The notes under the pieces were generated by a model, which was not told the origin of the DNA, made no database searches, and was given only the letters and a program-made list of their open reading frames with translations. The translations under genes were made by a program, and so were the position numbers. A DNA stretch of 64,000 nt from an uncultured archaeon (lineage in GTDB: Archaea; Asgardarchaeota; Lokiarchaeia; Sigyniarchaeales; SOKP01), in contig CAZALK010000012.1 in NCBI GenBank assembly GCA_964486045.1, positions 64,001 through 128,000 on the forward strand, written 5' to 3'. This document shows, one piece after another, positions 26,975 to 48,978 of this stretch (positions are counted from its first letter, which is position 1; each line of letters opens with the position of its first letter).

Positions 26975-27027
26975 AAACTGATTTAAAAGCGGTGGTATTA
27001 CTCAAAAAGTAATGGCCCGAGGGGGAT

Positions 27028-27057
27028 TTATTCTCGTGAAGAGATTTTCTGCACATA
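27028..27057 (-). other. 30-nt tRNA intron at about position 58/59 (T loop), BHB
   Basis: Central helix GTTC/GAAT, bulges AA|T and AA|A; excision gives TTCAAAT. Confidence 0.85.
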
Positions 27058-27093
27058 TTGAACCCTCGATTACCTGGTTCGCAACCAGGTGCC

Positions 27094-27115
27094 TTCAACC
27101 TTATTTTTTGTAAGT
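27094..27115 (-). other. 22-nt tRNA intron at about position 22/23 (D arm), relaxed BHB
   Basis: Intron stem CTTA/TAAG, bulges AG|A and AA|G, imperfect central helix GGAT/GTTG. Confidence 0.8.
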
Positions 27116-27424
27116 CTATCCAGGCTGGACTATCGGGCCACTTTTATACATGTTTTTCTATTTTTTATAGTTAATAATTCTCTAAAATACTTACGTAATC
27201 ATTTTTAATAGAAATGTGACTTTAATATTGGTGGATTATAAAATTTTTATGACTTAAGATCAACTTCAATATTGTTCTTCTTGAAGTAAAATTAATTGAT
27301 AACTATAAAAGTCTATTTAAAATTAAATGATTGAATGAAAATTTAAAATATTGGCTAAGAATAGCTTTTCGGTAGTAAGATTTATAATAGTAATGATTTT
27401 TTTAAATGTTAATTAATTTAAATT

Positions 27425-27889
27425 TTGATTATTAAAGATTTAATGCATTTTTTAAAAGATAGAATAACGACTCGTATAATTTTATATTTCCTTATTCCTT
27501 TAATATTTGTAGTTCTTATTGCTAAACCATTGTATTTTTTATTTACATTTTTAATGCATTTTTGGTTTGTGTCTTTCCCATTATTTTTCATAATTATTAT
27601 TGCTCTAAGAATATTTTCCCGAAAACGGGATTATAAGAAGATGTACCTTTCTCGTGATAATAAGTCAAATCAGAAAGATTTCGAAACTACTACAAGGAAA
27701 AGTGCTTTTAATAATGAAAAACTTTCAAAACCATATATTTCATGGCTGAAGAAAGGTATCCTAAAAAAATTCTACAAGACCAAAGATAATTCTTTTAATG
27801 ATGTTTTTGCAGTTATTATAGCCTTAATTCTATTAATTCTTGGTTTTTTTCTGGTTTTAGCATTCAATAACGGAGTACCTCTTTTCTGA
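27425..27889 (+). CDS. Hypothetical membrane protein
   Basis: Three hydrophobic segments. Confidence 0.6.
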   Translation: MIIKDLMHFLKDRITTRIILYFLIPLIFVVLIAKPLYFLFTFLMHFWFVSFPLFFIIIIALRIFSRKRDYKKMYLSRDNKSNQKDFETTTRKSAFNNEKLSKPYISWLKKGILKKFYKTKDNSFNDVFAVIIALILLILGFFLVLAFNNGVPLF

Positions 27890-28068
27890 TGAGCTCCTCG
27901 TATTATATAGAAGACTTTTAATTAGGATCAGATGAACTTTTTTACTACTTTCATGATACTAATATTTTATCAAACTACCCCACATATGTAGTAAAGAGAC
28001 TAAATAAAAAATAAGAGAACAAGAAAAAAGTAATAAATATCTCTACATAATTTAATACAAGAATTCTC

Positions 28069-29829
28069 ATGGATAAGGAAGAAATTAAAAAAATTCTCTG
28101 GAAAATTGGTTTGAAAAATGCTGTAGATTTTGGTGGAAAACCAAATAAAAAAGCAGTAATGGGTAAACTAATGGCTGAAAGAGGAGATCTAAAGTCTCAA
28201 GCCCGAGATATTATTCCTATATTAGATCAAATGATAGAAGAAATTAATAATCTAAGCTTAGAGGAACAAAATAATAAATTATTAATGTTAGATCCACAAG
28301 CTTTAGACAAAAAAGAAACTCAAGAAGAAACTAGAGAATTACCCCCTTTGCCTAACATTGATGATTACCAAGGGGTTGTCATGCGCTTAGCTCCTTATCC
28401 AAGTGGTGCATTACACATCGGAAATGCAAGGATGATTGTGCTAAACGATGAATATGCGAAAAAATATAATGGCGAGCTTATATTATTTTTTGATGATACA
28501 ATAGGAAGCCCTCAATCGTTAAGAGAAAATCCAAAAGCGAAATATGTTTTGCCAGAAGCATACGGTTTGATAAAAGACGGATTGAAATGGTTAGGTGTAA
28601 AATATTCTAAGACACTATATAAAAGTGATCGGTTAGATATTTTCTACAAATATTGTGAAAAATTGATAGATGATCATATGGCATATGTATGCTTTTGCAC
28701 TGCTAATGAATTTAGAGAAAAATATAAAAATCAGGGAGTCAACTGCCCACATAGAAAATTCTCAATAGAGGAGAATATAGGTGAGTGGAAAGCTATGCTT
28801 CAAGGACAATACCATGAGGGAGAAGCGGTAGTAAGATTAAAAACTGGTATGGATCAAAAAGATCCTGCTTTGAGAGACCAAATTATCTTGAGAATCTCTG
28901 ATGCAGAACATCCCAGAGTGGGTAAAAAATACACTGTTTGGCCAATGCTTGAATTTTCCTGGGCTATTGATGATCATTTGATCGGAGCTTCACATATTAT
29001 TAGAGGTATAGATTTAGTTAAAGAGGGAATTATTGAAGAATTTATTTGGGATCATTTTGGTTGGAAAAAAGCAAAATTGCTCTATTATGGCAGATTAAGA
29101 TTTCCTAACTTGAAATTAAGCAAAACTAAGACACGTAACTCCATTCAAAATGGTGTTTATAAAGGATGGGATGATCCCAGGACTTGGAGTTTGCAATCTC
29201 TTGAAAAAAGAGGTATAAAACCAGAAGCTCTTAGAAGAACACTATTAGATCTTGGAATGTCTCAATCTGGAATAGAATTTTCGGTGAATTGGTTATATTC
29301 AAAAAATCGAGATATTATTGATGAGATTTCAGACCGATATTTTTATATAGAAAATCCCATAACTGTAATTATTCAAGATGTACCTTCTGGTGAATATCTT
29401 GCTGAGCCTTTACTACTTCCTACTAACCCAGCTAAAGGGAGAAGGAAAATTTACTGTGATGTTGAGGATAACCAATTGAAATTAATTATTAATTTTTCAG
29501 ATGCAAAGAAAATTATTGACAACGAAATCCTAAGGCTGAAAGATTTGATAAATATCCAAATTAAATCTATAGATCTTGATAAAAAAGTTATTAATTCCTC
29601 CTTTCATAGTAAGGAACTAAATAGAGAATTTGCAATTATTCACTGGTTACCAAAAGATGATAACATAAAGGTTTTAATTGTTAAACTTGATGGTTCCATT
29701 TCAAGTGGTCTAGGAGAAACAAATCTTTTAAATATCCCCATGAATAAAACGATACAATTTGAGCGATTCGGATTTGTAAATCCCATTGAATTAAGTGAAA
29801 ACCGTCTTTTCTGTTATTTTTCTCATTAA
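28069..29829 (+). CDS. gltX: Glutamate--tRNA ligase (archaeal)
   Basis: RLAPYPSGALHIGN, KLSKT, GWDDPR and QFERFGF motifs. Confidence 0.95.
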   Translation: MDKEEIKKILWKIGLKNAVDFGGKPNKKAVMGKLMAERGDLKSQARDIIPILDQMIEEINNLSLEEQNNKLLMLDPQALDKKETQEETRELPPLPNIDDYQGVVMRLAPYPSGALHIGNARMIVLNDEYAKKYNGELILFFDDTIGSPQSLRENPKAKYVLPEAYGLIKDGLKWLGVKYSKTLYKSDRLDIFYKYCEKLIDDHMAYVCFCTANEFREKYKNQGVNCPHRKFSIEENIGEWKAMLQGQYHEGEAVVRLKTGMDQKDPALRDQIILRISDAEHPRVGKKYTVWPMLEFSWAIDDHLIGASHIIRGIDLVKEGIIEEFIWDHFGWKKAKLLYYGRLRFPNLKLSKTKTRNSIQNGVYKGWDDPRTWSLQSLEKRGIKPEALRRTLLDLGMSQSGIEFSVNWLYSKNRDIIDEISDRYFYIENPITVIIQDVPSGEYLAEPLLLPTNPAKGRRKIYCDVEDNQLKLIINFSDAKKIIDNEILRLKDLINIQIKSIDLDKKVINSSFHSKELNREFAIIHWLPKDDNIKVLIVKLDGSISSGLGETNLLNIPMNKTIQFERFGFVNPIELSENRLFCYFSH

Positions 29830-29980
29830 ATCTTACTAACGGTATCTTACAAATGACCCATCAAAATATTGTGAAGTTTATCCAGTTAACGAAAAATTTA
29901 TAAAAATCAAGAATAAGTTTATATCAATACAAGAATAATTTATTTTAGTTCGTATAAATTTAGAGGATGCTATACCAGCC

Positions 29981-31864
29981 ATGAATAATCACCTCCCGTG
30001 TAAGAAATGTGGTAGTAGTTTACCCGGAGTAAAAGGATCGGTAGTGCAGTGTCCTTATTGTGGAGCAAAAAATTTCTATATGGAATCTTTTTACACGTTT
30101 AAGTATTACGCATCAGATATATTAAATTTATCTTCTCTAAGAAAAGAAAAAAAAGTTAAAAATAGTGAAATCGAGAGGAGAAAATTATTAATACATTCTT
30201 ATTTCAACAATATCATTTCAAGTTTTAATGAGTACAGACATTTTGTAATAACAAAACTAGATACGATTGACGTTGACCCTGTAAAATTATTCTATCTTAT
30301 TCGCGCGTCAGGGAATTTCGAGATTATTATAGAAAGATTCTTACTGCCTTTTATAGAAGAAGAGACCTCTAAAATGAAGTATAGAGAATTTAGAGATCAA
30401 GCATTTATCATTAATAAATCGTTATTAGCGTTTTATTATAGCTATTTAGCAAAGGTTTCAACTCGTTCAGAAAATTGCATAAAATATTACCAAATTTCAG
30501 AAAAGAATTATCAAAATATAGTAGATTATTACAACATTACTGAGTTTGAAAATGGGGGGGCCTTTCTTTCGAGTAAAGGTGAGATCTACTCTATTCTCGT
30601 TGAATTTATAAGTATTTTAAGAAACATAGTAGATGAAAACCCAAGATACTATTCAGAAAAACTCGAAAGTCTACTTCAAAAATTGAATAAGATTAAAACA
30701 AGAAATATCAAGATATATAATTTATACATCCAGATTGAACTCATTTATCAACTAGAACGAAATACATGCATTTTGTTAGAAAATATCCGGATAGAAAACC
30801 CCTTCTTACTAACTGAACCTTTGAATGAAGTGAAATTACTTTCTTCAGAGGAAAATCTTGATAATTTAAATCGAGTAAGGAACTGGATTAACAATGTTAC
30901 CCAAAAGTATCAAAGATATCAAAATTGCTTGTTAAAATTGCATTCTGGGCGAATAATTAAATATTTAGGCTCAATTCGAACAGAATTTATTAATTATAAG
31001 AATAAAAACGCTGAAAAATTTGATGCTGTGCTTGGAAAAATGATTAACAAGGCTTTGGATTCTTATAATTCTGAAACTGTAGAAGCTCTTGAAACATTAA
31101 ATAATCTAATGCAAAAAAACATATACAGTGAAAACCTAATTGAAAGGTTTCAAATAAGTCATAACGACTTAATAAAGATGGATGATGTTTTAAAAAATTT
31201 TACTGATAATTTATTTAAAATTCCACTCCTAAGAAATTTGGAGTCCGAATATTATAAGCAGTTAATCTCTTTAATATCTGGTAAGCATTCTGTGTTCGAT
31301 AAATCTATTTTAAAGTATATTATTAAAATGTTAAAAGATTTTGAAGATTTAAGAAGCAAAAACGATTTATCACTTAAAGAACAACGAAAAAAGTTTATCT
31401 CAGAAATAAAACCAAATCTTCAGAAACTAATTGATTTAAGCTTTACATTAAATGAAGAAATACTACCTTATCCACTTTTTATTGATATAGAAATTCAAAA
31501 TCAAACGTTAAAAGTAGACAATCCTGAATCTATAACCCTTATTATTGAAAATCCTAATTCTAGCGACATAAAGAACATCAAGATATATTTTTTCATACCA
31601 GAATCATTTCAGAGTAAATTATGTTTTACAAGTATTAAAAAATTAAAAGCAAATGAAACGAGAAAGATCAAAACTAGAGTTATTCCTAAGCATAAGGGTA
31701 CATTTCTTTCAATGGTTATGATTGAATACCAACATTTTAACAAAACTTTTTGGATGCCTTCATTAAAATTCAAATTAGAAGTCAAAGAAACAAAAATCAT
31801 TATAAATTATCCAGTGATCAATAACCAAATTTATAGAAATGACTTCAGGCTAATTGTATTTTGA
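29981..31864 (+). CDS. Hypothetical protein: N-terminal Zn ribbon, helical core, C-terminal Ig-like domain
   Basis: CKKCG...CPYCG at the N-terminus; beta-rich C-terminus (ITLIIENPN...VIPKHKGTF). Confidence 0.7.
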   Translation: MNNHLPCKKCGSSLPGVKGSVVQCPYCGAKNFYMESFYTFKYYASDILNLSSLRKEKKVKNSEIERRKLLIHSYFNNIISSFNEYRHFVITKLDTIDVDPVKLFYLIRASGNFEIIIERFLLPFIEEETSKMKYREFRDQAFIINKSLLAFYYSYLAKVSTRSENCIKYYQISEKNYQNIVDYYNITEFENGGAFLSSKGEIYSILVEFISILRNIVDENPRYYSEKLESLLQKLNKIKTRNIKIYNLYIQIELIYQLERNTCILLENIRIENPFLLTEPLNEVKLLSSEENLDNLNRVRNWINNVTQKYQRYQNCLLKLHSGRIIKYLGSIRTEFINYKNKNAEKFDAVLGKMINKALDSYNSETVEALETLNNLMQKNIYSENLIERFQISHNDLIKMDDVLKNFTDNLFKIPLLRNLESEYYKQLISLISGKHSVFDKSILKYIIKMLKDFEDLRSKNDLSLKEQRKKFISEIKPNLQKLIDLSFTLNEEILPYPLFIDIEIQNQTLKVDNPESITLIIENPNSSDIKNIKIYFFIPESFQSKLCFTSIKKLKANETRKIKTRVIPKHKGTFLSMVMIEYQHFNKTFWMPSLKFKLEVKETKIIINYPVINNQIYRNDFRLIVF

Positions 31865-31938
31865 ATTGAAATCTCTATACTTTGTATTACTTTGAAATGT
31901 AAACTTTTTTTAATTTGTTTACTTCTTCTACTTAAAGT

Positions 31939-33045
31939 ATGAATGATGAAGAACTTCACAAGACAAATAATAGTCAAGAATCCATAAATTTTGATTGGAA
32001 ATTTTGTCCGATATGTGGAAACAAGCTCCCGACTATTCAAAACCTTAAATATTGCATAGTTTGTGGTACAGATATTAAATATATTAAAGAGAATAAAAAA
32101 TTAAGGCCTGCCTACACTTCTAATCCATACAAATCCCCAATGCTGTATTCCCAAGATAAACCCCGTTCTATCCCATCTATCTATTATGGTCCTGAAAAAA
32201 TTTCTGATGAAAATTTAATTGATAATAAAGAACATAAACTTTGGAGCACTACGGCTTCAATTGGATTACCATTTGCAGCTCTTTTATTAATGCAAGGTTT
32301 AATTGGGGGATTTCTTACTTTAGTTATGTTCTTATTTTTTAATGTAGATTTCTATTCAAATTTATTATCAAACTCTTATCTTACTTCCTTAATATCAATT
32401 TTTGAGCTTATATTTTTATTACTACCTATATTATATGTACGTAAATATCTTCAGAATCCAACATTAAAAAATAGGTTAATTTTATTCGGATTTACTACGA
32501 GAGGCTATGACAGGAGAAGAATTTCAAAGGAAATTTTAATAGGGTTGGGTTTTGCGGTAATAGGTGTATTCATTGTGACTCTTGTATCGGTTGGAACCGA
32601 ATTATTTTTAGAGCTTGTTTTTGGAATTACTATCATCCAAGATTCAACTAGTTTAACGGGTGAAATTATTCCCTCAGATTTAATTAGCTTGATTGTCTTT
32701 TCTGTAGTTATAATTTTAGTAATTGGTACTTCTGAAGAAGTTTTATTCAGAGGATTTATGCAAAAAGGGTTGGTTCGAAACTTAGGAGATAAATGGGGGA
32801 TAATAATAACAGCCCTTATATTTTCATTAATTCATCTGCTAGGGATCTTTCTGATTGCATTAGAATCACCTTTTTTGTTCGTAATCTCATTTCTCTTATC
32901 TTTTACTCCTTATTTTGCTATCTCCCTGATTTTAGGCTGGCTTTATCATTGGAGAAGTGAAAATTTATTAGCTGTAATGATAACTCATGGTGTATATGAT
33001 GTGTTGGTAGTAGTGATAACTTACTTGTTCTATGGGATATTTTAA
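31939..33045 (+). CDS. CPBP/CAAX-protease family intramembrane metalloprotease with N-terminal Zn ribbon
   Basis: EEVLFRG, FSLIH and HGVYD motifs; CPICG...CIVCG. Confidence 0.9.
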   Translation: MNDEELHKTNNSQESINFDWKFCPICGNKLPTIQNLKYCIVCGTDIKYIKENKKLRPAYTSNPYKSPMLYSQDKPRSIPSIYYGPEKISDENLIDNKEHKLWSTTASIGLPFAALLLMQGLIGGFLTLVMFLFFNVDFYSNLLSNSYLTSLISIFELIFLLLPILYVRKYLQNPTLKNRLILFGFTTRGYDRRRISKEILIGLGFAVIGVFIVTLVSVGTELFLELVFGITIIQDSTSLTGEIIPSDLISLIVFSVVIILVIGTSEEVLFRGFMQKGLVRNLGDKWGIIITALIFSLIHLLGIFLIALESPFLFVISFLLSFTPYFAISLILGWLYHWRSENLLAVMITHGVYDVLVVVITYLFYGIF

Positions 33046-33902
33046 TGAGTATACTACAAAAATTTGAATTATTGTCAAAGAAAAAAAGTACTAACATAGG
33101 AATAGGATTAGGCACATCAGAATTACACAACCAAAAGATCTTAAAAGCATGTCTTGATTTTTTAGAAGATCACACGTCGAATATTTATATTTTTGGTAAT
33201 AAACGCTCTATAGTCGGTCTTAATAAACAAGATTTTACTGAAAAACACAAGCATAATGTAAATTTAATTGAATGCGAAGAAACTGAAAAGAAGATTTTTG
33301 AATCTCTTAAGAATAACTCGATCAATGCAATTATTAGGGGTTCTTTAAGTTCAAGCAGTTTCTTAGCAAATCTTAAAAAATCCTTAAGTGTAGAAAAAAT
33401 AAACAGATTGACGCTATTAGAAACGGTAAGTGGACACCAATTCTTCTATGGTCCTGTTGGTATTGATGAATGTAGGAACGTTGAGGAAAAGATCGAATTT
33501 ATTGAAAAAGCTTTAGGTGCATTCGAATTCTTAAATATCAATCCTATTGTAACCGTATTAAGTGGGGGGAGGCGGGGTGATATAGGAAGAGATGAAAAAG
33601 TTGATAAATCTATTAGAGACGGAGATAAAGTTGTGGAAATTTTGAAGAGGAAATATTCAAGTCTAATGATTAATCATCACGAAATATTAATTGAGAGTGC
33701 TATAATGAATAAGTCTAATTTAATCATAGCTCCTGAAGGAATCTCAGGAAATCTAATTTATAGAACTCTTGTTCACCTAGGTGGTGGAAAAGCTTATGGT
33801 GCCATTTATATGGGAACAAAAAAAGTAATTGTTGATACTTCTAGAGTTGGTGAAATTTCAGAAATTCAAGGAGCATTGCTTATAGCATTAGCTTTATCTT
33901 AA
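33045..33902 (+). CDS. mtxX: MtxX/methanogenesis marker protein 4-like (phosphate acyltransferase fold)
   Basis: IRGSLSS, PVGIDE, LSGGR.GD.GR, GISGNLIYRTL and VDTSR motifs. Confidence 0.82.
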   Translation: MSILQKFELLSKKKSTNIGIGLGTSELHNQKILKACLDFLEDHTSNIYIFGNKRSIVGLNKQDFTEKHKHNVNLIECEETEKKIFESLKNNSINAIIRGSLSSSSFLANLKKSLSVEKINRLTLLETVSGHQFFYGPVGIDECRNVEEKIEFIEKALGAFEFLNINPIVTVLSGGRRGDIGRDEKVDKSIRDGDKVVEILKRKYSSLMINHHEILIESAIMNKSNLIIAPEGISGNLIYRTLVHLGGGKAYGAIYMGTKKVIVDTSRVGEISEIQGALLIALALS

Positions 33903-33907
33903 GATTC

Positions 33908-34732
33908 TTATTTTATTAAATGAGGATCATTAACTAAACGATAATTTTCATTCAATTCATCCAGTTGAGATATATCTTCTTTGTTTAGAGTAAAATCAAA
34001 TATATCTGCATTTTCACGAAGGTGTTGCTTATTTCCTGATTTAGGTATTTCTATTATTTCATGGTGCAAACCCCATCGAATTAAGATTTGAGCAGGAGTC
34101 TTTTTATATTTCTGAGCAAAAGACCTTACTACTTTATTTTTAAATTTGCTTCCTCGCGTTAGAGGAGAATAAGCTTCTACAACAATTTTATGTGATTTAC
34201 AGTAATCCATTAACTCTTTTTGATATAAAAATGGGGAAAACTCAATTTGATTAACTGTAGGTATTATTTCTGAAATTTCGAATAATTCGTTTAAATGACG
34301 TATAGTAAAATTACTTACACCAATGGAACGAGACTTTTCACTTTCATATAGTTCTTCCAACGCTTTCCATGTTTCATTTCTTAATCCACTAACGGGCCAA
34401 TGAATAAGGTAGAGATCAATATACTCTACTTTTAACCGTTTCAAGCTCTTTTCAAAAGCACTTTGAGCGTTATTATAGCCTTGTTCGCTATTCCAAACTT
34501 TAGTTGTTAAAAATATCTCGTCACGAGGTATATCTGAATCTTTCAAAGCTTTCCCAATTTCAATTTCGTTTCTATAAAGTGATGCAGTGTCAATTAACCG
34601 ATATCCTAAATCTAATGACCATAAGACTGCTTGATATGCTTCTCTACCTCTAAGACCCCATGTCCCTAAGCCTAAACACGGAATCGCCACCCCATTATTC
34701 AACTTTTGTGTTGAATCGATGTTTAATTCCAT
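33908..34732 (-). CDS. Aldo/keto reductase
   Basis: IDTASLY, TKVW, DLYLIHWP, IGVSNF and IPKS motifs. Confidence 0.95.
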   Translation of the reverse strand: MELNIDSTQKLNNGVAIPCLGLGTWGLRGREAYQAVLWSLDLGYRLIDTASLYRNEIEIGKALKDSDIPRDEIFLTTKVWNSEQGYNNAQSAFEKSLKRLKVEYIDLYLIHWPVSGLRNETWKALEELYESEKSRSIGVSNFTIRHLNELFEISEIIPTVNQIEFSPFLYQKELMDYCKSHKIVVEAYSPLTRGSKFKNKVVRSFAQKYKKTPAQILIRWGLHHEIIEIPKSGNKQHLRENADIFDFTLNKEDISQLDELNENYRLVNDPHLIK

Positions 34733-40384: not shown

Positions 40385-40488
40385 TGGGAGAGGGGGGATT
40401 TGAACCCCCGACCATTACCTGATCGCTTAAACCTTAAGAAATCTCTCGGCCCCCAGCCGAGTATCATACCAAGCTAGACTACCCTCCC
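40385..40488 (-). tRNA. tRNA-Pro(GGG) with a 30-nt non-canonical intron (about 40415-40444)
   Basis: Acceptor stem GGGAGGG/CTCTCCC, anticodon arm CTCGG-CTGGGGG-CCGAG and T arm GGGGG-TTCAAAT-CCCCC; 35 nt lie where a 5-nt variable loop is expected. Confidence 0.93.
40415..40444 (-). other. 30-nt tRNA intron at about position 43/44, relaxed BHB
   Basis: Intron hairpin GATTTCTTAA/TTAAGCGATC, bulges AG|A and AA|T, imperfect central helix GCCG/AGGT. Confidence 0.78.
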
Positions 40489-41101: not shown

Positions 41102-42652
41102 TTAAGAATTGAAAATCTTACCAGATTTTTGTTCTTCCTCTTCTCTTAATGGTTGTTTCTGAATTTTTCCTGTTGATGTTGTCTGCAATGTATCTCTAAA
41201 TTCCACATCTTTTGGAATCTTGAAATCCGCTAAATTTTTTTTGCAGAATTCTATGATTTCTTCAGCAGACGCGGTTGTCCCTTCCTTCAATACAACAAAA
41301 GCTTTCGGAAGTTCGCCATATATCTTATCTCGCACTCCAATCACTGTTGCTAGCGATACAGATGGATGTGAATAAAGAACCTCTTCAATTTCTCTTGGAT
41401 ATATATTTTCACCACCCCTAATTATCATATCTTTTTTACGATCTGTTATGAAGAAGAATCCATCTTCGTCCATATGACCAATATCTCCTGTATATAGCCA
41501 TCCATCTTTAAGTGTTTTAGCGTTTGCTTCAGGGTTCTTGAAGTACTCCTTCATTACGTTATCGCCTTTAACAAGAATCTCCCCTTTAGTATTTGAAGGT
41601 AGATCATTACTTTTTTCATCTACAATTTTCATTTCATTACCCGGTATAGGTAATCCAATACTTCCTATTTTACGTCTATCTTCTGATTCCGTTGGTAAGG
41701 GATTTACAGAAGAAACACAGGTACCTTCTGTAAGACCAAAACCTTCAACAATTTTACAATTAAATGTTGCTTCGAATTCTTTAAATACTTCAATTGGGAG
41801 TGGTGCGGCTCCACAAATCACAAATTTTAAAGAAGACAAATCTAAATTTTCATGTGGCATTTTAAGTAAGATAGAAAGCACTGTCGGAACAGCACTGAAA
41901 GTTGAAGCTTTATACTTAGCTACCGTTTCCCAGTGAGTTTTGGCTGAAAAACCAGGAGTTAAAATACAGCTAGCTCCTGCTAAGAGAGGAGTCATAACAG
42001 TCACAATTTGAGCGTTCACATGGAATAATGGTAAAATTAGCATGAATCGAAAGTCTTTGCTAGCTTTTAAGAAATCTTGTAACATTTCAGCATTTCTACG
42101 TATATTGAAATGAGTTTGCAATACACCTTTTGGAAAGCCAGTTGTTCCAGAAGTATAGAGGATTGCAGCTATATCTTCTTTCTCGTTAATCTCTACTTTA
42201 GGTGGAGCTTGACTTGATGCGTTTTCCATCAAGTTCCAAAAGTTAAGGCTTTTCCCCTCATAATCCCCTATAACTATTATATTTTTCAGATCGGGGAGAT
42301 CATTCTTTATCTCATTAACTGCTTCCATGAATTGAGGAATAGTGACAATAGCTTTAGCTTCAGAATGACCCACAACAAATTTTACTTCTCGTGGTTTAAA
42401 TAATGCATTTACAGGACCAGTCACTGCACCAATTTTAGGAATTCCTAAGTAAAGGTACACAAATTCTGGCATATTTGGTAGATAAACACTTACTTTATCT
42501 CCTTTTCTTATACCTAAATCGTATAACAAGTTTGCTACTTTATTTGAAAGTTCATTCAGTTGCTTAAAAGATACTGTTTCATCTTCCCAATATAAAAATA
42601 CTTTATCTCCATGTGTTTCCGCTTGCTTTTCAACAAACTCTCTTAAGTTCAT
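41102..42652 (-). CDS. Long-chain fatty acid--CoA ligase (ANL family)
   Basis: YTSGTTGFPKG, GFGLTE, TGDIG and TGKIQK motifs. Confidence 0.93.
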   Translation of the reverse strand: MNLREFVEKQAETHGDKVFLYWEDETVSFKQLNELSNKVANLLYDLGIRKGDKVSVYLPNMPEFVYLYLGIPKIGAVTGPVNALFKPREVKFVVGHSEAKAIVTIPQFMEAVNEIKNDLPDLKNIIVIGDYEGKSLNFWNLMENASSQAPPKVEINEKEDIAAILYTSGTTGFPKGVLQTHFNIRRNAEMLQDFLKASKDFRFMLILPLFHVNAQIVTVMTPLLAGASCILTPGFSAKTHWETVAKYKASTFSAVPTVLSILLKMPHENLDLSSLKFVICGAAPLPIEVFKEFEATFNCKIVEGFGLTEGTCVSSVNPLPTESEDRRKIGSIGLPIPGNEMKIVDEKSNDLPSNTKGEILVKGDNVMKEYFKNPEANAKTLKDGWLYTGDIGHMDEDGFFFITDRKKDMIIRGGENIYPREIEEVLYSHPSVSLATVIGVRDKIYGELPKAFVVLKEGTTASAEEIIEFCKKNLADFKIPKDVEFRDTLQTTSTGKIQKQPLREEEEQKSGKIFNS

Positions 42653-42831
42653 ATTCCTTCCCTCTTTTCCAAATTTATAAAATTTCTGTTTAATTAAAAT
42701 TTAAATCATGAATACCTTTAATTCTAACTGAAAATTCAAGATGCTATAATTTTTACTAATAATTTTTATATTAGTTAAAGAGTTTTTTATCATATTGTTT
42801 TTTCTATAAAACTCACGTATTTAGTAATTTT

Positions 42832-43128
42832 ATGAGATCTCGAAAGCCTTTCTTAATTTTTTGGCCTCAATACTTTGACGGGAAGAGAAGTCGAAGTAAA
42901 GGGAGAAGATTACCAAAAAAATTTGCTATAGAAAAAGTCACTACCAGTGATATTGCCAAAGCAGCTAAGAATATAGGATATAATGCTGTTATTGAACAAG
43001 GATATAAATATTCTAGGACATGGTGGGATGACCCTGGTAGGGTCGTTATGGATGCAAAAGGAAAAAAAAAATCTAAAATTTTGCTTGAACTTGCCAAAGA
43101 ACTTAGAAAAATACAATCAAAAACATAA
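42832..43128 (+). CDS. srp19: Signal recognition particle protein SRP19
   Basis: IFWPQYFD..RSRSKGRRLPK...YSR.WW...GRV...KSKIL. Confidence 0.93.
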   Translation: MRSRKPFLIFWPQYFDGKRSRSKGRRLPKKFAIEKVTTSDIAKAAKNIGYNAVIEQGYKYSRTWWDDPGRVVMDAKGKKKSKILLELAKELRKIQSKT

Positions 43129-43138
43129 TTGATTTATC

Positions 43139-43507
43139 ATGCATGAATTTTCATTTGCCTATAACATCTTTCAAGTAGCTGAAGCCACAGCAATAAAGAA
43201 TAACGCCAAAAAAATAACTGAAGTTCTTTTAGAAATTGGAGAATTAACACTTATTGTACCAGAATTACTTCAACGTTCTTTTGAGATGGCTACTAAAGGT
43301 TCAATTGCCGAGGGAGCTAAATTAACAATTCAAATAACCCCAGGTAAAATTAAATGTAAGGAATGTGGTAAAGAATCTCCTGTCTCCTTAACAGAGGAAG
43401 CTCAATTAACAGGATTACAATTATTCCAGTGTTCTCATTGCGAAAGTAATAATACCGAGATAGTCGAAGGAAAAAAAGCTAATGTTAAAAATATTAAAAT
43501 ATTGTGA
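43139..43507 (+). CDS. hypA: Hydrogenase nickel metallochaperone HypA
   Basis: MHE N-terminus, IGELT and two CxxC motifs. Confidence 0.93.
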   Translation: MHEFSFAYNIFQVAEATAIKNNAKKITEVLLEIGELTLIVPELLQRSFEMATKGSIAEGAKLTIQITPGKIKCKECGKESPVSLTEEAQLTGLQLFQCSHCESNNTEIVEGKKANVKNIKIL

Positions 43508-43532
43508 AAAATGGTAAAATAAGTCGACTTAA

Positions 43533-44417
43533 TTATTTTTTAGCATAAACATTTCCAATCCCAAACCATTCTCCTTCAAAAGGTAATAGGTCCAATTCAT
43601 TTTTTTGACCAATGCTTTCATCTATCATCTTAAAAACGGCTTCATTAAATCCTGCATCTTTATGGAATTTTGTTACTTCATTTACTAACAAGAATTTGTC
43701 AAATCCTTCCAAATCTTGATCACCGAAAAACTCTCTCAATTTTTTAAAACCATTAGAATTTTCTTCAATAATAATCGTACTATTTAAAAAATTCTGATTA
43801 TGTTTTAAAACTCGATAAGTTTCTTTCAAAGCTTTAGGAATTAGTTCTCTCATATTAGAAATTCCCATGAATGATAATGCTAAATCATAGCTGTTTTCTA
43901 AAAATGGCAGATTAGTGGCATCACAAGATACAAAACTAACTTTAATTTTAGGTTTATGTTTTTGAATCTTTTTTCTATCAGCCTGTAGAACGACATAACT
44001 GAGGTCAGTACATACTAAATGAGACTCGTATTTTAACTCTTTTGCTAATTCGTTTAATAACATGCCCCTCCCTGTTGCTATATCAATAACGATTTCAGGC
44101 TTGTTTAAATTGAGATAATCTATAATATCTTCTATAGTTTTTAGAATAAGTTCTTGCTGATTTCCTGGAGTTTTACTTAAAATCATCTCATCAAATTCTT
44201 CAAATGACATCTCTTTAGTCAACTCACTCCACCTATTAACAGTTTCTTGTTCTTCTACTCTAAAATCTAAAACTCCATCTCTTATCTCCCAAAGTTCGTC
44301 ACATCTGCATTTCAATCTTCCATCTATTATTTCACCATTGTCTAGTACTGAATCTACAAGATGTAATGATTTATTACAATTAGGACACTTAAGCAATGCA
44401 ATTATTTCTCTATACAT
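43533..44417 (-). CDS. Class I SAM methyltransferase with N-terminal Trm112-like Zn domain
   Basis: LKCPNC...IRDGVLDF; DIATGRG and CDATNLPF motifs. Confidence 0.85.
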   Translation of the reverse strand: MYREIIALLKCPNCNKSLHLVDSVLDNGEIIDGRLKCRCDELWEIRDGVLDFRVEEQETVNRWSELTKEMSFEEFDEMILSKTPGNQQELILKTIEDIIDYLNLNKPEIVIDIATGRGMLLNELAKELKYESHLVCTDLSYVVLQADRKKIQKHKPKIKVSFVSCDATNLPFLENSYDLALSFMGISNMRELIPKALKETYRVLKHNQNFLNSTIIIEENSNGFKKLREFFGDQDLEGFDKFLLVNEVTKFHKDAGFNEAVFKMIDESIGQKNELDLLPFEGEWFGIGNVYAKK

Positions 44418-44548
44418 TTAATTTCCCTTTCAAATTTTATTGAATTTATCAATCAGGAATATACCAAACTTAACTTCAAAGCTAATTGACTGAAATACTT
44501 CCTTTCCTTATTACTACATAGATTATCTAAAAAAGAAGAAATTGATCT

Positions 44549-44932
44549 TTAAGTTGAAATTAACACACCGTTAATATCACCATGTTGACCAGGGCGGCTT
44601 GTTATTTTTGCATTACCTAATTCAGTCTCAACTATCGCTCCTTTTGTTAGGATATGCCTTCTATTCAAATCCTTTGAAGCAATGTTATTTTCAAAACCCA
44701 TAATCCTAACTTTAGATGTTTTATTTGTATTAGGGTCTGTTACATTTATAGAATTAGTGGAAAATAATCTAATTTTCATGTTACCACCCAATGTCCTCTG
44801 CTTCTTCTTCTTTTCCTCCCCGATAACCGTATCTATTGTAGGGCGATGAAGTTCTCTTTTCCTTTTCTTCCTAAAGTGTCTGTATTTTTTCCCTGTATAT
44901 TTTCTCTTACTTCTAGCTGAACTTCGTGCCAT
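44549..44932 (-). CDS. rps8e: 30S ribosomal protein eS8
   Basis: RKYTG...RKKRKRE, ILTKGAIVET and ITSRPGQHG motifs. Confidence 0.96.
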   Translation of the reverse strand: MARSSARSKRKYTGKKYRHFRKKRKRELHRPTIDTVIGEEKKKKQRTLGGNMKIRLFSTNSINVTDPNTNKTSKVRIMGFENNIASKDLNRRHILTKGAIVETELGNAKITSRPGQHGDINGVLIST

Positions 44933-45084
44933 GAAAAATTTACCAAATTCAATACAATTTAATAGGTTAGTTAAGAAAGGGTATCTTTAAAATTTTTTTA
45001 AAAAACGAACTAAATTATGTTTTATTAAGGAAAAATAAATATAGAAATAATTTTTATCTATTATAATAAATCAATCTTTAGTTA

Positions 45085-45756
45085 TTGATTATAGTAGAAA
45101 TTGCTATTACAAAAATGATAAATAATAATTTGAATCATCGAATTATCGATGAAAAAACGCTTGAAAAAGCTTTTCAAACCGGTACAACAACAGTAGGGAT
45201 AATTGTAAAAGAGGGGGTAGTTATTGGAACTGAAAGCCAGGCTTCGGCAGGTTTTCTAGTTGCCTCAAAGCAAGCACAGAAATTATTTGAAATAAATCAA
45301 TTTACTGCGGCTACAATTGCTGGCGGTGTAGCAGACTGTCAGTACGTAATTAATCAGCTCAAAGCTTTATCTCGCTTAAAAGAAGTAGAGGAGGAGGTGG
45401 TACCCGAGCCTAAATACATTGCGAGTGTTTGTCGTAATATACTTTTTAGCGGTCGAAGTTTTTTCATGAGCATGATGATAGTCGGTGGTTATTCACAAAA
45501 GGGACAATCAGGAATGTTGACAGGTATAGACATGTTAGGAACCTTGTATGAAGAGGACAGCTTTATATCTTTTGGAAGTGGTTCACCCTTTTCTCTAGGC
45601 GTGTTGGAGGCTGATTGGAAACCAAACATGTCTAAAACAGAAGGTGTTGAACTCATCAAAACAGCAATCTCAACTTCGAGAGAACGAGATGCTGGTTCTG
45701 GTTTTAAAATCCAACTTTGCACAATTAATAAAAATGGTTTCAAACAGGTTGAATAA
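45085..45756 (+). CDS. psmB: Proteasome beta subunit (probable start ATG 45115)
   Basis: Propeptide followed by TG|TTTVG; AGGVAD, GSGS and RDAGSG motifs. Confidence 0.93.
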   Translation: MIIVEIAITKMINNNLNHRIIDEKTLEKAFQTGTTTVGIIVKEGVVIGTESQASAGFLVASKQAQKLFEINQFTAATIAGGVADCQYVINQLKALSRLKEVEEEVVPEPKYIASVCRNILFSGRSFFMSMMIVGGYSQKGQSGMLTGIDMLGTLYEEDSFISFGSGSPFSLGVLEADWKPNMSKTEGVELIKTAISTSRERDAGSGFKIQLCTINKNGFKQVE

Positions 45757-45834
45757 TTGCATTTTTGAAATTCCTTAGGAATATTCAAAATTTTATTTAG
45801 ATAAATTTTTAGTAGAATCAACTACATCTTTGCT

Positions 45835-46350
45835 CTAGCTGACTTTTAGTTGAATTTGTTGAATCTCTTCTTCCAAATAAATAAATCCATTTATTTCAAA
45901 ATTACTTCCATCCATTATCGTCCAAATTTGATTTTTAAAGGGTACTTTCGTCATCAGGGATGAGTTTAACACAGTTTCGTAAAAATCATCTAAATATTCC
46001 ATATAATTGACATCAAATCCACTTGGATATGACCCAACGGGGTGGGAATGAAAAATACTTAAAACTCGTCTTTTATATTTTTCATTAGCATTTTTCATTA
46101 TCCTGTATAATTCTTCAATATTTTCCATTAAGAAATTAACTGGGGAGCTTTGATCTGATCTAATGCACTCAATGATCTCCCCAAAGTAGTGATATTGATA
46201 TTTTCCGGGATTATCTAAGATGATTTCTTTTGGTTGAGGTCCTAAAATCAACCCAAAAGCTTCATTAGGACTAGCATTTTGAACACAACCCTTCATATTT
46301 CCATAAATTTCTGGATCAATATAGAAAACTATATCTTTTTGATATTTCAT
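45835..46350 (-). CDS. JAMM/MPN+ metalloprotease
   Basis: PNEAFGLILG and FHSHP...PSGFD JAMM motif. Confidence 0.9.
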   Translation of the reverse strand: MKYQKDIVFYIDPEIYGNMKGCVQNASPNEAFGLILGPQPKEIILDNPGKYQYHYFGEIIECIRSDQSSPVNFLMENIEELYRIMKNANEKYKRRVLSIFHSHPVGSYPSGFDVNYMEYLDDFYETVLNSSLMTKVPFKNQIWTIMDGSNFEINGFIYLEEEIQQIQLKVS

Positions 46351-46375
46351 TTTTTTTCGATTCTTATATTAAATT

Positions 46376-47059
46376 TTATATTAGGGTTAGAGCCGCATTA
46401 AGAGTTGCAATTCTCGCTTTTTGAGGACTATCTCCAGAACCAATTGCAACTACATCATTGTTTTCTAATTTAACCTTTCTCTCAGTCAATTTAGATTCAA
46501 AGTATTTTTGGAGTTCTTTATTTACTATCGAGTCATTATTACTAATTCCAGAATAAGATTTTGATGGAAAAATTAGATTTTTTCCACTATAAACTAAACA
46601 TGTTGCTCCAAAACCATTTATTTTGATTGCTGCGTCTCTTTGATTGATACCATCAGTTATTTTATGACTTGCATTTTTCACTAAACAAAAATATACTGAT
46701 GTTTCTTCAGGTTCAACAATTATATCCTTAAGCACAGAAGATTCTCCTCTTTCGATTATAGGAATAATTGTTTTTATTTTTTCTAAATATTTTAATCCCA
46801 ATTCAGTTAAAACGTGCCCCTTTCTTTTTGTCTCAACAACTACAGCAACAAAATTTTTTTTCTCATTTAGTTTCTTAATTAATGACTTTGCAGTTCCTTC
46901 ACCAATCATTAATTCTTTTTGTAAGCGGTATCTTCCAATACCTTCCGGATTTTCACCAAATATAAATAAAGCTAATATAACATGAACTCTCTCAAATGAT
47001 GGTTTAATTGTAGAACTCTCGAATAGCGAATCTAATTCTTCAAACATCAATGCACTCAT
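46376..47059 (-). CDS. wHTH plus DUF4443-type protein
   Basis: IGRYRL..EL.IGEG HTH; GINQRDAAIK..G.GAT motif. Confidence 0.75.
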   Translation of the reverse strand: MSALMFEELDSLFESSTIKPSFERVHVILALFIFGENPEGIGRYRLQKELMIGEGTAKSLIKKLNEKKNFVAVVVETKRKGHVLTELGLKYLEKIKTIIPIIERGESSVLKDIIVEPEETSVYFCLVKNASHKITDGINQRDAAIKINGFGATCLVYSGKNLIFPSKSYSGISNNDSIVNKELQKYFESKLTERKVKLENNDVVAIGSGDSPQKARIATLNAALTLI

Positions 47060-47185
47060 GAATATGTAAGTAATTAAAGTAAAAAAATTAATATTAAAAA
47101 ATATAAATCAAGTTGTCATATTATTATTTATCGAAAATTTAGAAATTCAAGTTGTATTTAATAATTAACATCATCCTCATTTAAA

Positions 47186-48175
47186 ATGAAGGAAAAAAAG
47201 GATGGAACAAATCCCGATCAGACACAAGATCTAGTTATTTTCAAAAGGAAAGAAGAGCGGGAAAGTAAAGATCTCCCTAAATTTACTTTTGAGGCAATCG
47301 ATCAAGAGGACAAAATAAGACTATTAAATGAGTTTAAACCTTACGGTGGGCATTATGTGCTTTCAATTCAACTATTGAATGAAAGTTTAGCACCAATATC
47401 AGAAGTAAAAATTAAAATTAGGTATTCAAATTTCTTAAAACTAACAAGAAGTTACCCGCCTACCATATACATTTCAGAACCGATTGAGGAAGTGGAAACA
47501 TCTAAATTAGTTCTCGAATTTGACGAACTAAATGAAAGAAGCAAAAAGCAACTTAACTTACACTTTACCCCACTCTCATTAGGTAATGAAGGAGAGATAA
47601 GAACGATTGTTACCTATGTAAATAATAAAGATTTTGTTCGAGTCTTAAATTCAGACCCAGTTACTATTACATTAGATAAAATAACCATTAATCCTAAGAT
47701 AATTCCAAGCTCATATGTCAGAGAATTTTCACAAATTCCCCGTATGAAAAGAGCCGTTAAAAGCTTAGGGATTGGAACACGAGGAAAAAATGATCCCGAT
47801 TTATATTTCAAACTATTAGAACAGGTATTCCTTAGGAACAGTCTTCAATTAATAACTAAAGATCCTGAAAAAAAAATTCTATGGTATTTTGGATCTGATT
47901 TAGAATCGAGAGACGATGTATTAATAATTGGAAAAACCGGGGCAAATAAAGTAAAAATAATCGGTACCTCAAAAAATCATCATGTTCTTATTTCATTTTT
48001 AACATCATTTTCCAATGAATTTAAAGAGCATCTTTTGATAAGTGGAATCGTAAGCAGCCTTGATGACATATATGATTTAGAATGCAAGTATTGTGGGACG
48101 ATTCTCCCTTATTTCCCTAAAAAAGGTGAAGAAGTTCAATGCTCTAAATGCAAATATGAACAACTTTTATGGTAG
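47186..48175 (+). CDS. Hypothetical protein: Ig-like plus platform-like domain and C-terminal Zn ribbon
   Basis: Beta-rich N-terminal half; CKYCG...CSKC at the C-terminus. Confidence 0.7.
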   Translation: MKEKKDGTNPDQTQDLVIFKRKEERESKDLPKFTFEAIDQEDKIRLLNEFKPYGGHYVLSIQLLNESLAPISEVKIKIRYSNFLKLTRSYPPTIYISEPIEEVETSKLVLEFDELNERSKKQLNLHFTPLSLGNEGEIRTIVTYVNNKDFVRVLNSDPVTITLDKITINPKIIPSSYVREFSQIPRMKRAVKSLGIGTRGKNDPDLYFKLLEQVFLRNSLQLITKDPEKKILWYFGSDLESRDDVLIIGKTGANKVKIIGTSKNHHVLISFLTSFSNEFKEHLLISGIVSSLDDIYDLECKYCGTILPYFPKKGEEVQCSKCKYEQLLW

Positions 48176-48702
48176 CTATTTTATTACAGTTGGTTTTCTT
48201 ATTATTGGTAATGTTTATCCATGTCTTTTACTATAAAATTAAAAATAATAGTTAATTTAACTTAAATCAAGAATTAATTACAAAATTTCCTTTATTTTAC
48301 CCAATCCCCTATATTATTAAAATTAAGTTTAAAATTACTAACTATTCAAAATTGCAAAAACTCATAGTGTTACGTCTCAGATTTTGATCGAATTTTTTAA
48401 TTGTTCAAAGAGTTTCTCAATTTAATTCATTCTGAGGAAATTCTGAGACTTTTGATGATTTAAATCTTGGAATCCAACTAAAATTGCCTATCCATAAAAA
48501 GAACCTAACTTGCACGAGATTGATCAATTTCATAATTTCGAATTTTGTCGTTCAATTTTTTTTATTTTTATCCCAACAAAAGCATGAGAATATCAAAATC
48601 TTTAAATATCCAAAAGATCAATATCTATATAATAAATTCTTTAAAAATAACAAAAATTAACAAAAAGTATCACTACAAAATAAATAATTGGAGGAATAAA
48701 AA

Positions 48703-48978
48703 ATGGCTGGATCAGATTACATTTCTTGGTCACCAATAAGACGTCTCATGAAGCACAACGGGGCTGTAAGTCAATAAACCTCTTTTTGACTGGCTAAAAT
48801 CGTTGCGCGAGATGCCGTTAATGAGTTAGTTGATTGGATGGGTCAATCAGCAGAAACACTCACAAAAACCGCGTTAACTTTAACTAAACACTCTAAAATT
48901 CTTATAGGATTCCTATAAAAATAGGAAAGAAAGAAAGTAACGCGTAATGACATCTTATTGGCCATCAAGTATTTTTAA
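48703..48978 (+). CDS. Archaeal histone, 71 aa, spliced: join(48703..48767,48798..48897,48928..48978)
   Basis: GGAGG Shine-Dalgarno at 48690-48694. Spliced product MAGSDYISWSPIRRLMKHNGAVIVARDAVNELVDWMGQSAETLTKTALTLTKHSKRKKVTRNDILLAIKYF has the HMf-like histone-fold pattern (PI.RLMK..GA..V..DA; H.KRK.V...DI.LA). Confidence 0.92.
48768..48797 (+). other. 30-nt BHB-type mRNA intron 1 of the histone gene
   Basis: Intron stem AGTCAA/TTGACT, central helix GGCT/GGCT, bulges GT|A and AA|A(A), exon helix CAACGG/TCGTTG; contains in-frame TAA and TGA. Confidence 0.85.
48898..48927 (+). other. 30-nt BHB-type mRNA intron 2 of the histone gene
   Basis: Intron stem TTATAG/CTATAA, central helix TCTA/TAGG, bulges AA|A and AA|A; contains in-frame TAA and TAG. 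Confidence 0.85.

Follow-up and report, generated by a model that had tools for sequence, protein, structure and literature searches.

The 64,000-nt window analysed here samples what we take, with a probability of about 0.8, to be a genome-wide class of BHB mini-introns of about 30 nt, built on one plan and shared by tRNAs and mRNAs. Their excision at the RNA level would be the work of the archaeal tRNA-splicing endonuclease (EndA), and the exons would be rejoined by RtcB; we infer splicing in vivo and the exact cut sites from the sequence. The window holds five introns, and their positions and lengths agreed with the initial annotation: 30 nt for the tRNA-Arg T-loop intron, the tRNA-Pro intron and both histone introns, and 22 nt for the tRNA-Arg D-arm intron. 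The features are as follows.

27013..27139, minus strand: tRNA-Arg(GCG) gene with two non-canonical introns, from cloverleaf threading
27028..27057, minus strand: tRNA-Arg T-loop intron at 58/59, exactly 30 nt, from threading
27094..27115, minus strand: tRNA-Arg D-stem intron at 22/23, 22 nt, from threading, motif relaxed, central helix paired at 3/4
40385..40488, minus strand: tRNA-Pro(GGG) gene, from Rfam RF00005 (49.2 bits, insert of about 30 nt) and threading
40414..40444, minus strand: tRNA-Pro intron of 30 nt at 43/44 to 45/46, the start sliding by 1 nt
48703..48978, plus strand: histone gene in three exons (48703-48767, 48798-48897, 48928-48978), 71 aa when spliced
48768..48797, plus strand: histone intron 1, 30 nt, with an in-frame TAA, an exact 30-column gap in 11 congeners
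48898..48927, plus strand: histone intron 2, 30 nt, with an in-frame TAA and TAG, an exact 30-column gap in 10-11 congeners

Threading of the tRNA-Arg(GCG) gene into a cloverleaf gave 7/7 acceptor pairs, 5/5 anticodon pairs and 4/5 T-stem pairs with an A-C mismatch. The length of the T-loop intron is exact because the 7-nt loop and the 5-bp stem fix its ends; its central helix GUUC/GAAU is fully paired (4/4), its bulges are AA|U and AA|A and its interior is a centred hairpin. The boundaries of the D-stem intron are uncertain by 1-2 nt because a 24-nt parse scores about equally. Orthologues of tRNA-Arg(GCG) were sought in congeners by a DNA search and with a 21-nt pattern, and neither turned up any; the congener G023 gave no anchor either. 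The tRNA-Pro gene is 104 nt long as compared to 74 nt for the mature tRNA, and its insert measures 30 nt with a 5-nt variable loop or 31 nt with a 4-nt loop, the site being ambiguous between 43/44 and 45/46. The 3' end of this intron reads AGGU AA and its 23-nt interior is again a centred hairpin. ARAGORN and Rfam did not call the tRNA-Arg(GCG) gene in the 64-kb window. Gene finding on the window returned zero tRNAs from ARAGORN and showed the histone gene as fragments.

The histone gene was aligned by MAFFT to 11 orthologous genes of congeners, all of them intron-free, and removal of the two inserts restored the readings GAV|IVARDAV and HSK|RKKVTRND. In the minimum-energy fold of intron 1 the outer helix is CAACGG/UCGUUG, the central helix GGCU/GGCU, paired at 4/4, and the inner helix AGUCAA/UUGACU, forming a full BHB motif with the 5' bulge GUA but a 4-nt 3' bulge, AAAA. 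Intron 2 has a central helix UCUA/UAGG paired at 4/4 with both bulges AA|A, and a hairpin of 10 pairs and one mismatch is possible in its interior, a partly manual reading.

Four introns of equal length among five could reflect coincidence or the choice of boundaries, and chance had been named as a caveat from the start: n is 5, and the tRNA-Pro length hangs on the assumed 5-nt variable loop. Intron lengths were read from genome-wide histograms. tRNA introns were counted using our own seed, chain and threading scripts, which replaced ARAGORN (intron mode on or off) and Rfam tRNA searches, as these missed or mis-parsed most split tRNAs. GC-rich islands were dropped as seeds for RNA genes, 5189 islands being far too unspecific. 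In G000, the genome of the window, 13 of 36 tRNA introns were exactly 30 nt and 26 of 36 were 28-32 nt, a histogram that leaves out about 8 tRNA loci with about three inserts each that threading did not parse and in which D-loop and variable-loop lengths are ambiguous by 1-4 nt. T-arm introns were 29-32 nt without exception. Introns at the canonical 37/38 position measured 17, 19, 22, 30 and 49 nt, and this group is under no size constraint. In G023, the second genome, the mode is again 30 nt (11/34 exactly 30 nt, 26/34 at 28-32 nt). Cloverleaf scores after intron removal equalled those of intron-free tRNAs.

Among confidently parsed introns outside the window, 45% were exactly 30 nt in G000, and four of five in the window is therefore as predicted (P = 0.13 for at least 4/5). 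Measured against a flat 22-38 nt distribution, the 30-nt peak has a binomial P of 6e-8 for tRNA and 7e-13 for mRNA introns, and the histograms, together with multi-genome alignments, are independent of boundary choice. The equal lengths in the window reflect a genome-wide rule, and coincidence or a boundary artefact can be given practically no credence. The initial annotation had set two observations as counter-evidence, a broad spread of lengths that lacks a peak at 30 nt and an absence of further mRNA introns; neither was found, and its caveat of chance at n = 5 is ruled out by the histograms.

Inserts in mRNAs were sought by whole-genome tblastn with the ORFs of the congener G023, a search that made no use of the splicing motif. 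In all, at least 19 inserts in 17 genes with unrelated hosts were measured in G000, a metagenome assembly with 7.8% estimated contamination. Stop-containing in-frame inserts were 30 nt at 11 sites, with others of 27 and 33 nt, and frame-shifting inserts were 28, 31, 31 and 46 nt; the exact-30 share may be overstated in this histogram because in-frame tblastn gaps come in multiples of three and split hits were possibly under-found. Spliced alignment against paralogues within the genome was abandoned, as it yielded only 10 sites. Stop-free in-frame inserts in G000 showed no 30-nt peak (7 at 30 nt vs 9 at 27 nt and 6 at 33 nt), their numbers falling smoothly with length in the same tblastn comparison, suggesting that at most a few stop-free 30-nt introns are hidden.

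The hosts include RNA polymerase A' (rpoA'), uS10, uL11 and the histone, and the proposal that the introns had spread specifically into abundant RNAs did not hold, as Ras-type GTPases, a radical SAM enzyme, a GH57 enzyme, an SCP2 protein and proteins without known function carry them too. The rpoA' insert is 30 nt; 23 of the 24 congeners searched gave a match, the insert was absent from 21 by match span, with a clean gap in the four of these that were aligned, and within the genus it was also present in G017. The uS10 insert is 31 nt as compared to five congeners, none of which has it. Stops or frameshifts caused by inserts fall in rpoA' (within Rpb1 domains), uS10 and uL11, and judging by the frames they break these inserts must presumably be removed. 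Removal restored the frames of the histone, rpoA' and uS10 with a base-for-base match to intron-free orthologues.

Introns away from the classical site in the anticodon loop follow one design of about 30 nt. The first nucleotide is the third base of the 5' bulge. A centred hairpin of 23 nt, typically 9 bp with a 5-nt loop, follows as helix h', the next four nucleotides pair with exon bases -6 to -3 as the central 4-bp helix, and the last two, mostly AA, open the 3' bulge as its first and second bases. The centred hairpin was found in 21 of 28 thirty-nt introns as compared to 9% of shuffled interiors. The plan accommodates each of the 13 thirty-nt mRNA introns, whose central helices have 3-4 pairs (4/4 in 11, 3/4 in two), the Ras-type GTPase intron C1:29546 having been fitted by hand. 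The exon-pairing tetramers are all different, each matches its own host, and their spacing to the upstream exon is that needed for two 3-nt bulges. As almost all of the recognition structure lies within the intron, a host need supply only four complementary bases, and possible sites therefore include the T-loop, the D-arm and codons for the histone L1 loop or the polymerase GHFGH motif. The sharp 30-nt peak and the single architecture in two genomes bear out the suggestion of a size-constrained class common to tRNA and mRNA.

Many junctions met only relaxed rules, with 0-2 contiguous pairs in the outer or inner helices by simple scoring, and the motifs were classed as relaxed forms because the flanking helices are often short. 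Enzymes of broad specificity also accept relaxed BHB forms (HBh', hBH). A strict BHB scan of the genome (4-bp helix, at least 2 bp per flank, joining two ORFs) with shifted-cut decoys as controls gave about 1 million matches with no length peak, and the count at 30 nt was 40 as compared to 26-36 for the decoys. The background was dominated by adjacent-gene junctions, and real introns often failed the strict flank rule. With the scan barely above decoys, the BHB motif alone cannot identify these introns. Additive BHB scoring with free length favoured long spurious solutions and was replaced by fixed-length and then architecture-based scoring.

The interiors come close to perfect 9-bp palindromes and have A/T-rich loops, as hairpin-forming DNA insertions would look, and one could read the inserts as palindromic insertions at the DNA level (miniature elements or repair scars) that inactivate the host or are translated through. 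We consider this very improbable. In-frame stops or lengths of 28 or 31 nt sit inside rpoA', uS10 and uL11 while the flanking exons are conserved and open, and the tRNA T-loop, D-stem and anticodon stem would be broken in isoacceptors that have no second gene in the census. Each insert also has a tetramer complementary to the upstream exon at the spacing of two 3-nt bulges, and one such pairing covaries with the exon. Group I and group II introns were rejected, the inserts being 22-49 nt as compared to a ribozyme core of hundreds of nucleotides, and an Rfam scan found no intron ribozyme in the window. A CRISPR-spacer origin of the 30-nt size was also rejected, as the lone CRISPR-repeat-like match in the window (13433-13457) has no array around it.

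Enzymes for excision as BHB introns are encoded in the genome. EndA (PF01974) is present as two paralogues with open frames of about 200 aa each, and RtcB (PF01139) as one gene. The alpha copy of EndA, with Aeropyrum pernix EndA (3P1Z_B, E = 1e-33) as its best match, contains the catalytic Tyr, His and Lys and a loop corresponding in the alignment to the specific loop of the A. pernix enzyme; the second paralogue lacks the catalytic His. EndA typing, a check raised in the initial annotation, gives an (alpha-beta)2 enzyme of broad specificity with a Crenarchaea-type specific loop. As lengths of 17-49 nt are tolerated at 37/38 in the same genome, the enzyme is not obviously the source of the size limit.

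Intron lengths were also compared between genomes. At non-canonical tRNA positions shared by G000 and G023, intron length was equal in 9 of 11 cases, and three equal-length pairs had chance-level identity (10/30, 11/30 and 12/31), indicating that length is actively maintained and not merely inherited. Between the rpoA' genes of G000 and G017, the exon codon changes from GGA to GGG and the pairing tetramer of the intron from GUCU to GCCU, giving a central pairing of exon GGAC with intron GUCU in G000 and of exon GGGC with intron GCCU in G017, and a G.U pair in the intron hairpin is replaced by U-A. In this single genome pair the BHB base pairs are kept by compensatory change. Introns of about 30 nt unique to G023 occur at tRNA sites empty in G000, and vice versa. 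Gains and losses occur inside one genus.

Gains this recent and patchy could also arise if one mobile 30-nt element had been copied recently, its length being inherited and not selected, a scenario that parallels the intron transposition proposed for Thermoproteales tRNAs. The absence of the histone introns from 11 congeners and of the uS10 intron from five, the restriction of the rpoA' intron to G000 and G017, the differences in tRNA introns in both directions and the single architecture of all new gains would suit such copying. However, in local alignments of 48 introns with shuffled controls the best non-paralogous pair scored 13 as compared to a null maximum of 12, and the only clear pair in the all-against-all comparison was from two tRNA-Gly paralogues. 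No second copy was found when each intron was searched against the genome by blastn-short, the host-matched tetramers all differ, and inheritance alone is insufficient for orthologous introns that keep their length at chance-level identity. Copying from a master element is not visible because the introns share no sequence beyond chance, and the several similar copies required of a mobile repeated element (MITE-like or a transposed intron family) were not found. We therefore regard copying as unlikely. The earlier remark that the introns are not obviously related in sequence was confirmed, their likeness being no greater than chance, while the shared insertion mechanism proposed with it is not visible in sequences alike only at that level. 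A tentative and rather doubtful idea is that the introns are 30-nt cassettes from a dedicated generator, still active in this Asgard lineage, that would give each new site a unique 23-nt hairpin and a 4-nt guide complementary to the host exon, with a separate ruler that would hold the length at 30 nt. Such a generator might act by EndA/RtcB-mediated insertion at the RNA level, the product then being copied back into DNA, or by fold-back insertion at the DNA level.

Archaeal tRNA introns are usually described as length-variable. In eukaryotes, XBP1/HAC1 mRNA undergoes unconventional splicing by IRE1 and RtcB or tRNA ligase. Both that system and the one proposed here have a small mRNA intron with paired stem-loop sites, a protein endonuclease, a tRNA-type ligase and no spliceosome, but XBP1/HAC1 differs in its endonuclease and motif, is a single regulated substrate and has no genome-wide family of uniform introns. 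Rickettsia palindromic elements are in-frame insertions of more than 100 bp in bacterial genes, present in many similar copies and translated. The inserts in G000 resemble them as short hairpin-forming inserts in protein genes that vary in presence among relatives, but are 30 nt, unique in sequence, mostly stop-containing and fitted with a host-matched splice helix. The nearest precedent is the BHB intron in the pre-mRNA of cbf5 (pseudouridine synthase) of Crenarchaeota (Yokobori et al. 2009, PMC2738675, and earlier work cited there), also a short intron in a protein-coding mRNA that depends on tRNA-splicing endonuclease and ligase and is gained and lost among relatives. It is confined to one gene family in one phylum, unlike the 19 or more inserts in 17 genes of one genome, which share a sharp common length and hairpin plan with that genome's own tRNA introns. 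In the portion of the literature searched, cbf5 is essentially the only documented case of endonuclease-spliced introns in archaeal mRNA. Non-canonical and multiple tRNA introns are described for Thermoproteales and Asgard archaea (Marck and Grosjean 2003; Sugahara 2008; PMC11291895; bioRxiv 10.64898/2026.10.13.758758), and G000 is similar in its D-arm, T-loop, variable-loop and anticodon-stem introns, often 2-3 per gene and missed by standard finders, and in its (alpha-beta)2 EndA with an L1 specific loop (PMC5829648). The searched text of bioRxiv 10.64898/2026.10.13.758758 gives median tRNA intron lengths of 22-23 nt for other Asgard families and mentions no size class, hairpin plan or mRNA hosts; in contrast, the mode in G000 is 30 nt and the same class also occurs in mRNAs.

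New here are the rule on size, the common architecture and the evidence of length conservation, which describe a standardised 30-nt module in tRNAs and at least 17 protein genes, some indispensable, in one archaeon and at least one congener. Length conserved without sequence suggests that introns in the lineage closest to eukaryotes are shaped by a constraint or a generator, and the spread of protein-spliced introns into mRNAs becomes a directly testable question. If a dedicated generator exists, the introns would make up the first system in prokaryote mRNAs that proliferates at a standardised size, and it would be found in a group that ranks with the nearest known relatives of eukaryotes. Such genomes are mis-annotated by gene finders and tRNA finders alike, and the rule of 30 nt, a centred hairpin, a 4-nt match to the exon and an AA end makes systematic correction of their annotation possible.

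The tRNAs of the window were parsed with a custom cloverleaf threader in which inserts were permitted at any position. ARAGORN found no tRNA in the window, and the sole Rfam tRNA match was to tRNA-Pro, with an insert of ~30 nt. A CRISPR-DR25-like Rfam match at 13433-13457 (-) was sub-threshold with no repeat array within 4 kb, and was set aside as probably due to chance. The interrupted genes and their inserts were as follows:

27013-27139, minus strand: tRNA-Arg(GCG), two inserts
27028-27057, minus strand: T-loop intron of tRNA-Arg(GCG) at 58/59, 30 nt
27094-27115, minus strand: D-stem intron of tRNA-Arg(GCG) at 22/23, 22 nt (24 nt in an alternative parse)
40385-40488, minus strand: tRNA-Pro(GGG), gene 104 nt, mature tRNA 74 nt, one insert
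48703-48978, plus strand: histone gene, interrupted at 48768-48797 and 48898-48927

The T-loop intron of tRNA-Arg was exactly 30 nt because the 7-nt loop and 5-bp stem are fixed. The tRNA-Pro insert, at 43/44 to 45/46, was 30 nt and would reach 31 nt only with a 4-nt variable loop. The histone inserts were confirmed by orthologue alignment, which is independent of the splicing motif and of the choice of boundary. Both inserts were absent in all 11 aligned orthologues from the same genus, with gaps of exactly 30 columns each, and the predicted spliced sequence had the junctions GAV|IVARDAV and HSK|RKKVTRND, matching the orthologues. The minimum free energy fold of histone intron 1 gave a near-textbook bulge-helix-bulge (BHB) motif with an outer helix of CAACGG/UCGUUG, a central helix of GGCU/GGCU, a 5' bulge of GUA, an inner helix of 6 bp and a 3' bulge of AAAA. 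The threading and the 11-orthologue alignment thus upheld the initial annotation that four of the five window introns are exactly 30 nt. A paralogous histone gene on another contig (C6:146506-146758) had 71% identity to the window histone across the intron-1 region and, judging from that alignment, probably has its own insert.

The genome (G000) is a metagenome assembly of 5.18 Mb in 45 contigs with a G+C content of ~30%. Compared to this value, two short contigs (C40 and C45) were G+C-rich nearly throughout and may be rRNA operons or contamination (estimated at 7.8% for the assembly). The genome-wide tRNA census used a cloverleaf score equal to that of intron-free genes as the criterion and contained 36 confident introns. 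Their lengths were 17 nt (1), 19 (1), 22 (1), 25 (1), 26 (1), 28 (3), 29 (4), 30 (13), 31 (3), 32 (3), 35 (1), 38 (1), 45 (1) and 49 (2). T-arm introns, for which length is unambiguous, were all 29-32 nt and six were exactly 30 nt. Introns at the classical 37/38 site measured 17, 19, 22, 30 and 49 nt and the size constraint is therefore a property of the non-canonical class. About eight more tRNA loci, including C1:604354-604517, C10:28561-28721, C23:36420-36590 and C11:110181-110338, combined well-formed acceptor and T arms with an excess of 84-98 nt, or about three 30-nt units, and had no unique parse; these were left out of the census and the tRNA set is thus incomplete.

For mRNA introns, the genome-wide BHB motif scan proposed initially, run with a strict motif and ORF joining, gave no usable signal and was dropped, as junctions between neighbouring genes swamped it and real introns often had short flanking helices. 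We used a motif-free tblastn comparison, run both ways, of G000 with a congener (G023) whose complete genome is 2.27 Mb, calling inserts in G000 with intact G023 reading frames as probes. Best hits had a median protein identity of 66% over the first 400 kb of G023. Of the in-frame inserts that contained a stop, 11 measured 30 nt, one at a well-matched site 33 nt and one 27 nt; frame-shifting inserts were 28, 31, 31 and 46 nt. A second 33-nt stop-containing match (59% identity) was probably antisense and was excluded. With the two histone introns included, 13 of 19 mRNA inserts were exactly 30 nt. Length histograms peaked at 30 nt in both tRNA and mRNA, and more mRNA introns were found. A binomial test against a flat distribution over 22-38 nt gave P = 6e-8 for tRNA and 7e-13 for mRNA (n=18 inserts, the 28-nt uL11 insert lying outside the set), and the initial caution that five introns might agree by chance was not borne out. 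Outside the window 45% of introns were exactly 30 nt, and the four of five within it are therefore simply representative.

Stop-free in-frame inserts had no 30-nt peak and fell smoothly in count with size (15 at 24 nt, 9 at 27, 7 at 30, 6 at 33 and 9 at 36). Stop-free frames made up 54% of the frames in tRNA 30-mers, yet no peak of stop-free 30-nt inserts was seen; if all 7 are counted as introns the deficit is not significant (P = 0.15). A stop-free 30-nt in-frame insert in the congener relative to G000 (G023:356538, +) ended in AA and had an interior hairpin; it is a candidate for a hidden intron, which in translation would look like 10 inserted amino acids.

Host genes were identified by Pfam scans of the G023 orthologues. 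They encode RNA polymerase subunit A' (Rpb1 domains 1-2), ribosomal proteins uS10 and uL11, three Ras-family GTPases, two AIR-synthase-family proteins, a GH57 branching enzyme, a glycosyl-transferase-family-3 phosphorylase, a radical SAM/SPASM protein, a BadF/BcrA ATPase, an SCP2 protein, a LURP-one-related protein and two proteins without a Pfam match. One of the latter (259 aa) had two 30-nt introns 162 nt apart (C1:510845 and C1:511007). Some of these hosts are genes that cannot be dispensable. The proposed spread into abundant RNAs did not hold, as the hosts include GTPases, GH57, SCP2 and proteins without a Pfam match. The uS10 insert was exactly 31 nt relative to five congeners and therefore shifts the reading frame unless removed. 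The rpoA' insert was exactly 30 nt, was also present in another congener (G017), and was absent by match length in 21 of the 23 congeners with a match, four of which were aligned and gave a clean gap. At the exact site of this intron a further congener (G022, C59:2780-3090) had an 85-nt insert with several short hairpins (alignment columns 114-198), which may have arisen by nesting or expansion of an intron or by a separate gain at a favoured site.

When the 28-32-nt introns from tRNA and mRNA hosts were laid out together nearly all followed one plan: one nucleotide, usually A or U; a 23-nt interior hairpin centred on intron positions 11-15; four nucleotides complementary to the exon at -6 to -3; and two final nucleotides, which were AA in 12 of 28. 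The topology is that of the tRNA type, with a central helix between exon and intron and an inner helix entirely within the intron. Of the thirty-nt introns, 21 of 28 formed a centred hairpin with 5 bp or more, as compared to 9% of shuffled interiors, and younger mRNA introns often had a perfect 9-bp stem closed by a 5-nt loop rich in A and U (AAUUA, AUUUA or AGUUA, for example). Under architecture scoring, exactly 30 nt was the best length for 11 of the 13 thirty-nt mRNA inserts, which had 3-4 central helix pairs and pairing at 7-9 of 10 stem positions. A length of 30 nt also suited the remaining two, rpoA' with its length fixed by alignment and a Ras-type GTPase intron by hand with a central helix of GAUC/GAUC. 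All-against-all alignment confirmed the initial impression that the intron sequences are not obviously related, scoring at the level of shuffled controls except for one paralogous tRNA-Gly pair, and no second copy of any intron was found in the genome. New introns each had a right-sized hairpin and a host-matched tetramer despite having no common sequence. The common insertion mechanism proposed initially is hypothetical.

Length conservation was assessed by spliced alignment of the mature G000 tRNAs to G023. The congener had the same mode, with 11 of 34 tRNA introns at 30 nt and 26 of 34 at 28-32 nt, and the motif-free evidence from two genomes supported the proposal of a size-constrained class across tRNA and mRNA. 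At 11 shared non-canonical positions, nine pairs were the same length and two differed by 1-2 nt. Three same-length pairs had 10/30, 11/30 and 12/31 bases identical in register, about the chance expectation from base composition, between exons that were 93-99% identical. Lengths diverged more among loop introns at 37/38 or close to it, with 49 vs 32, 19 vs 22 and 45 vs 46 nt. As judged from these alignments, intron length is maintained beyond inheritance. Sequence turnover without net length change suggests that size is under selection, or that cassettes of equal size have repeatedly replaced one another. In rpoA', a synonymous exon change between G000 and G017 (GGA to GGG) was matched in the intron tetramer (GUCU to GCCU), keeping four of four pairs, and a G.U pair in the hairpin became U-A with both strands changed; covariation of this kind, here from a single comparison, would not be expected unless the motif is in use. 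Intron content also differed: tRNA-Phe had four inserts in G023 (30, 28, 30 and 30 nt, around 371983) and two in G000 (~35 and 30 nt, C5:9034-9171), and some G000 T-loop introns were absent in G023. Several further tRNAs had a ~30-nt intron in only one of the two genomes.

A BHB intron in cbf5 (PMC2738675) and very intron-rich Asgard tRNAs (PMC11291895) have been described. An October 2026 preprint (10.64898/2026.10.13.758758) gives median intron lengths of 22-23 nt for other Asgard families and, in the text searched, makes no mention of mRNA hosts, a size class or the hairpin plan. The literature searched, outside subscription journals, contained no description of a 30-nt class in Asgard archaea or of BHB introns being widespread in their mRNAs.

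The splicing endonuclease of G000 fell in a protein cluster that was mostly Promethearchaeota (Asgard archaea) among members with known taxonomy. PF01974 matched two separate open frames of ~200 aa, at C7:36262-36867 and C10:136871-137473. One copy had the conserved Tyr, His and Lys, matched the Aeropyrum pernix catalytic subunit (3P1Z_B, E = 1e-33) and contained a loop, FFGSPLGINKPRLEYFSKP, that aligned with its Crenarchaea-specific loop region; the second was without the catalytic His. Typing EndA, as suggested initially, assigned it by homology to the (alpha-beta)2 type with an L1 loop, a form found in Asgard and TACK archaea and linked to a broad substrate range (Kaneta et al., PMC5829648). 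The endonuclease is no obvious size-setter because G000 handles 17-49 nt at 37/38. G000 had one RtcB gene (C1:512216-513523), and the gene for the 259-aa protein with two introns lay ~1.2 kb upstream of it.
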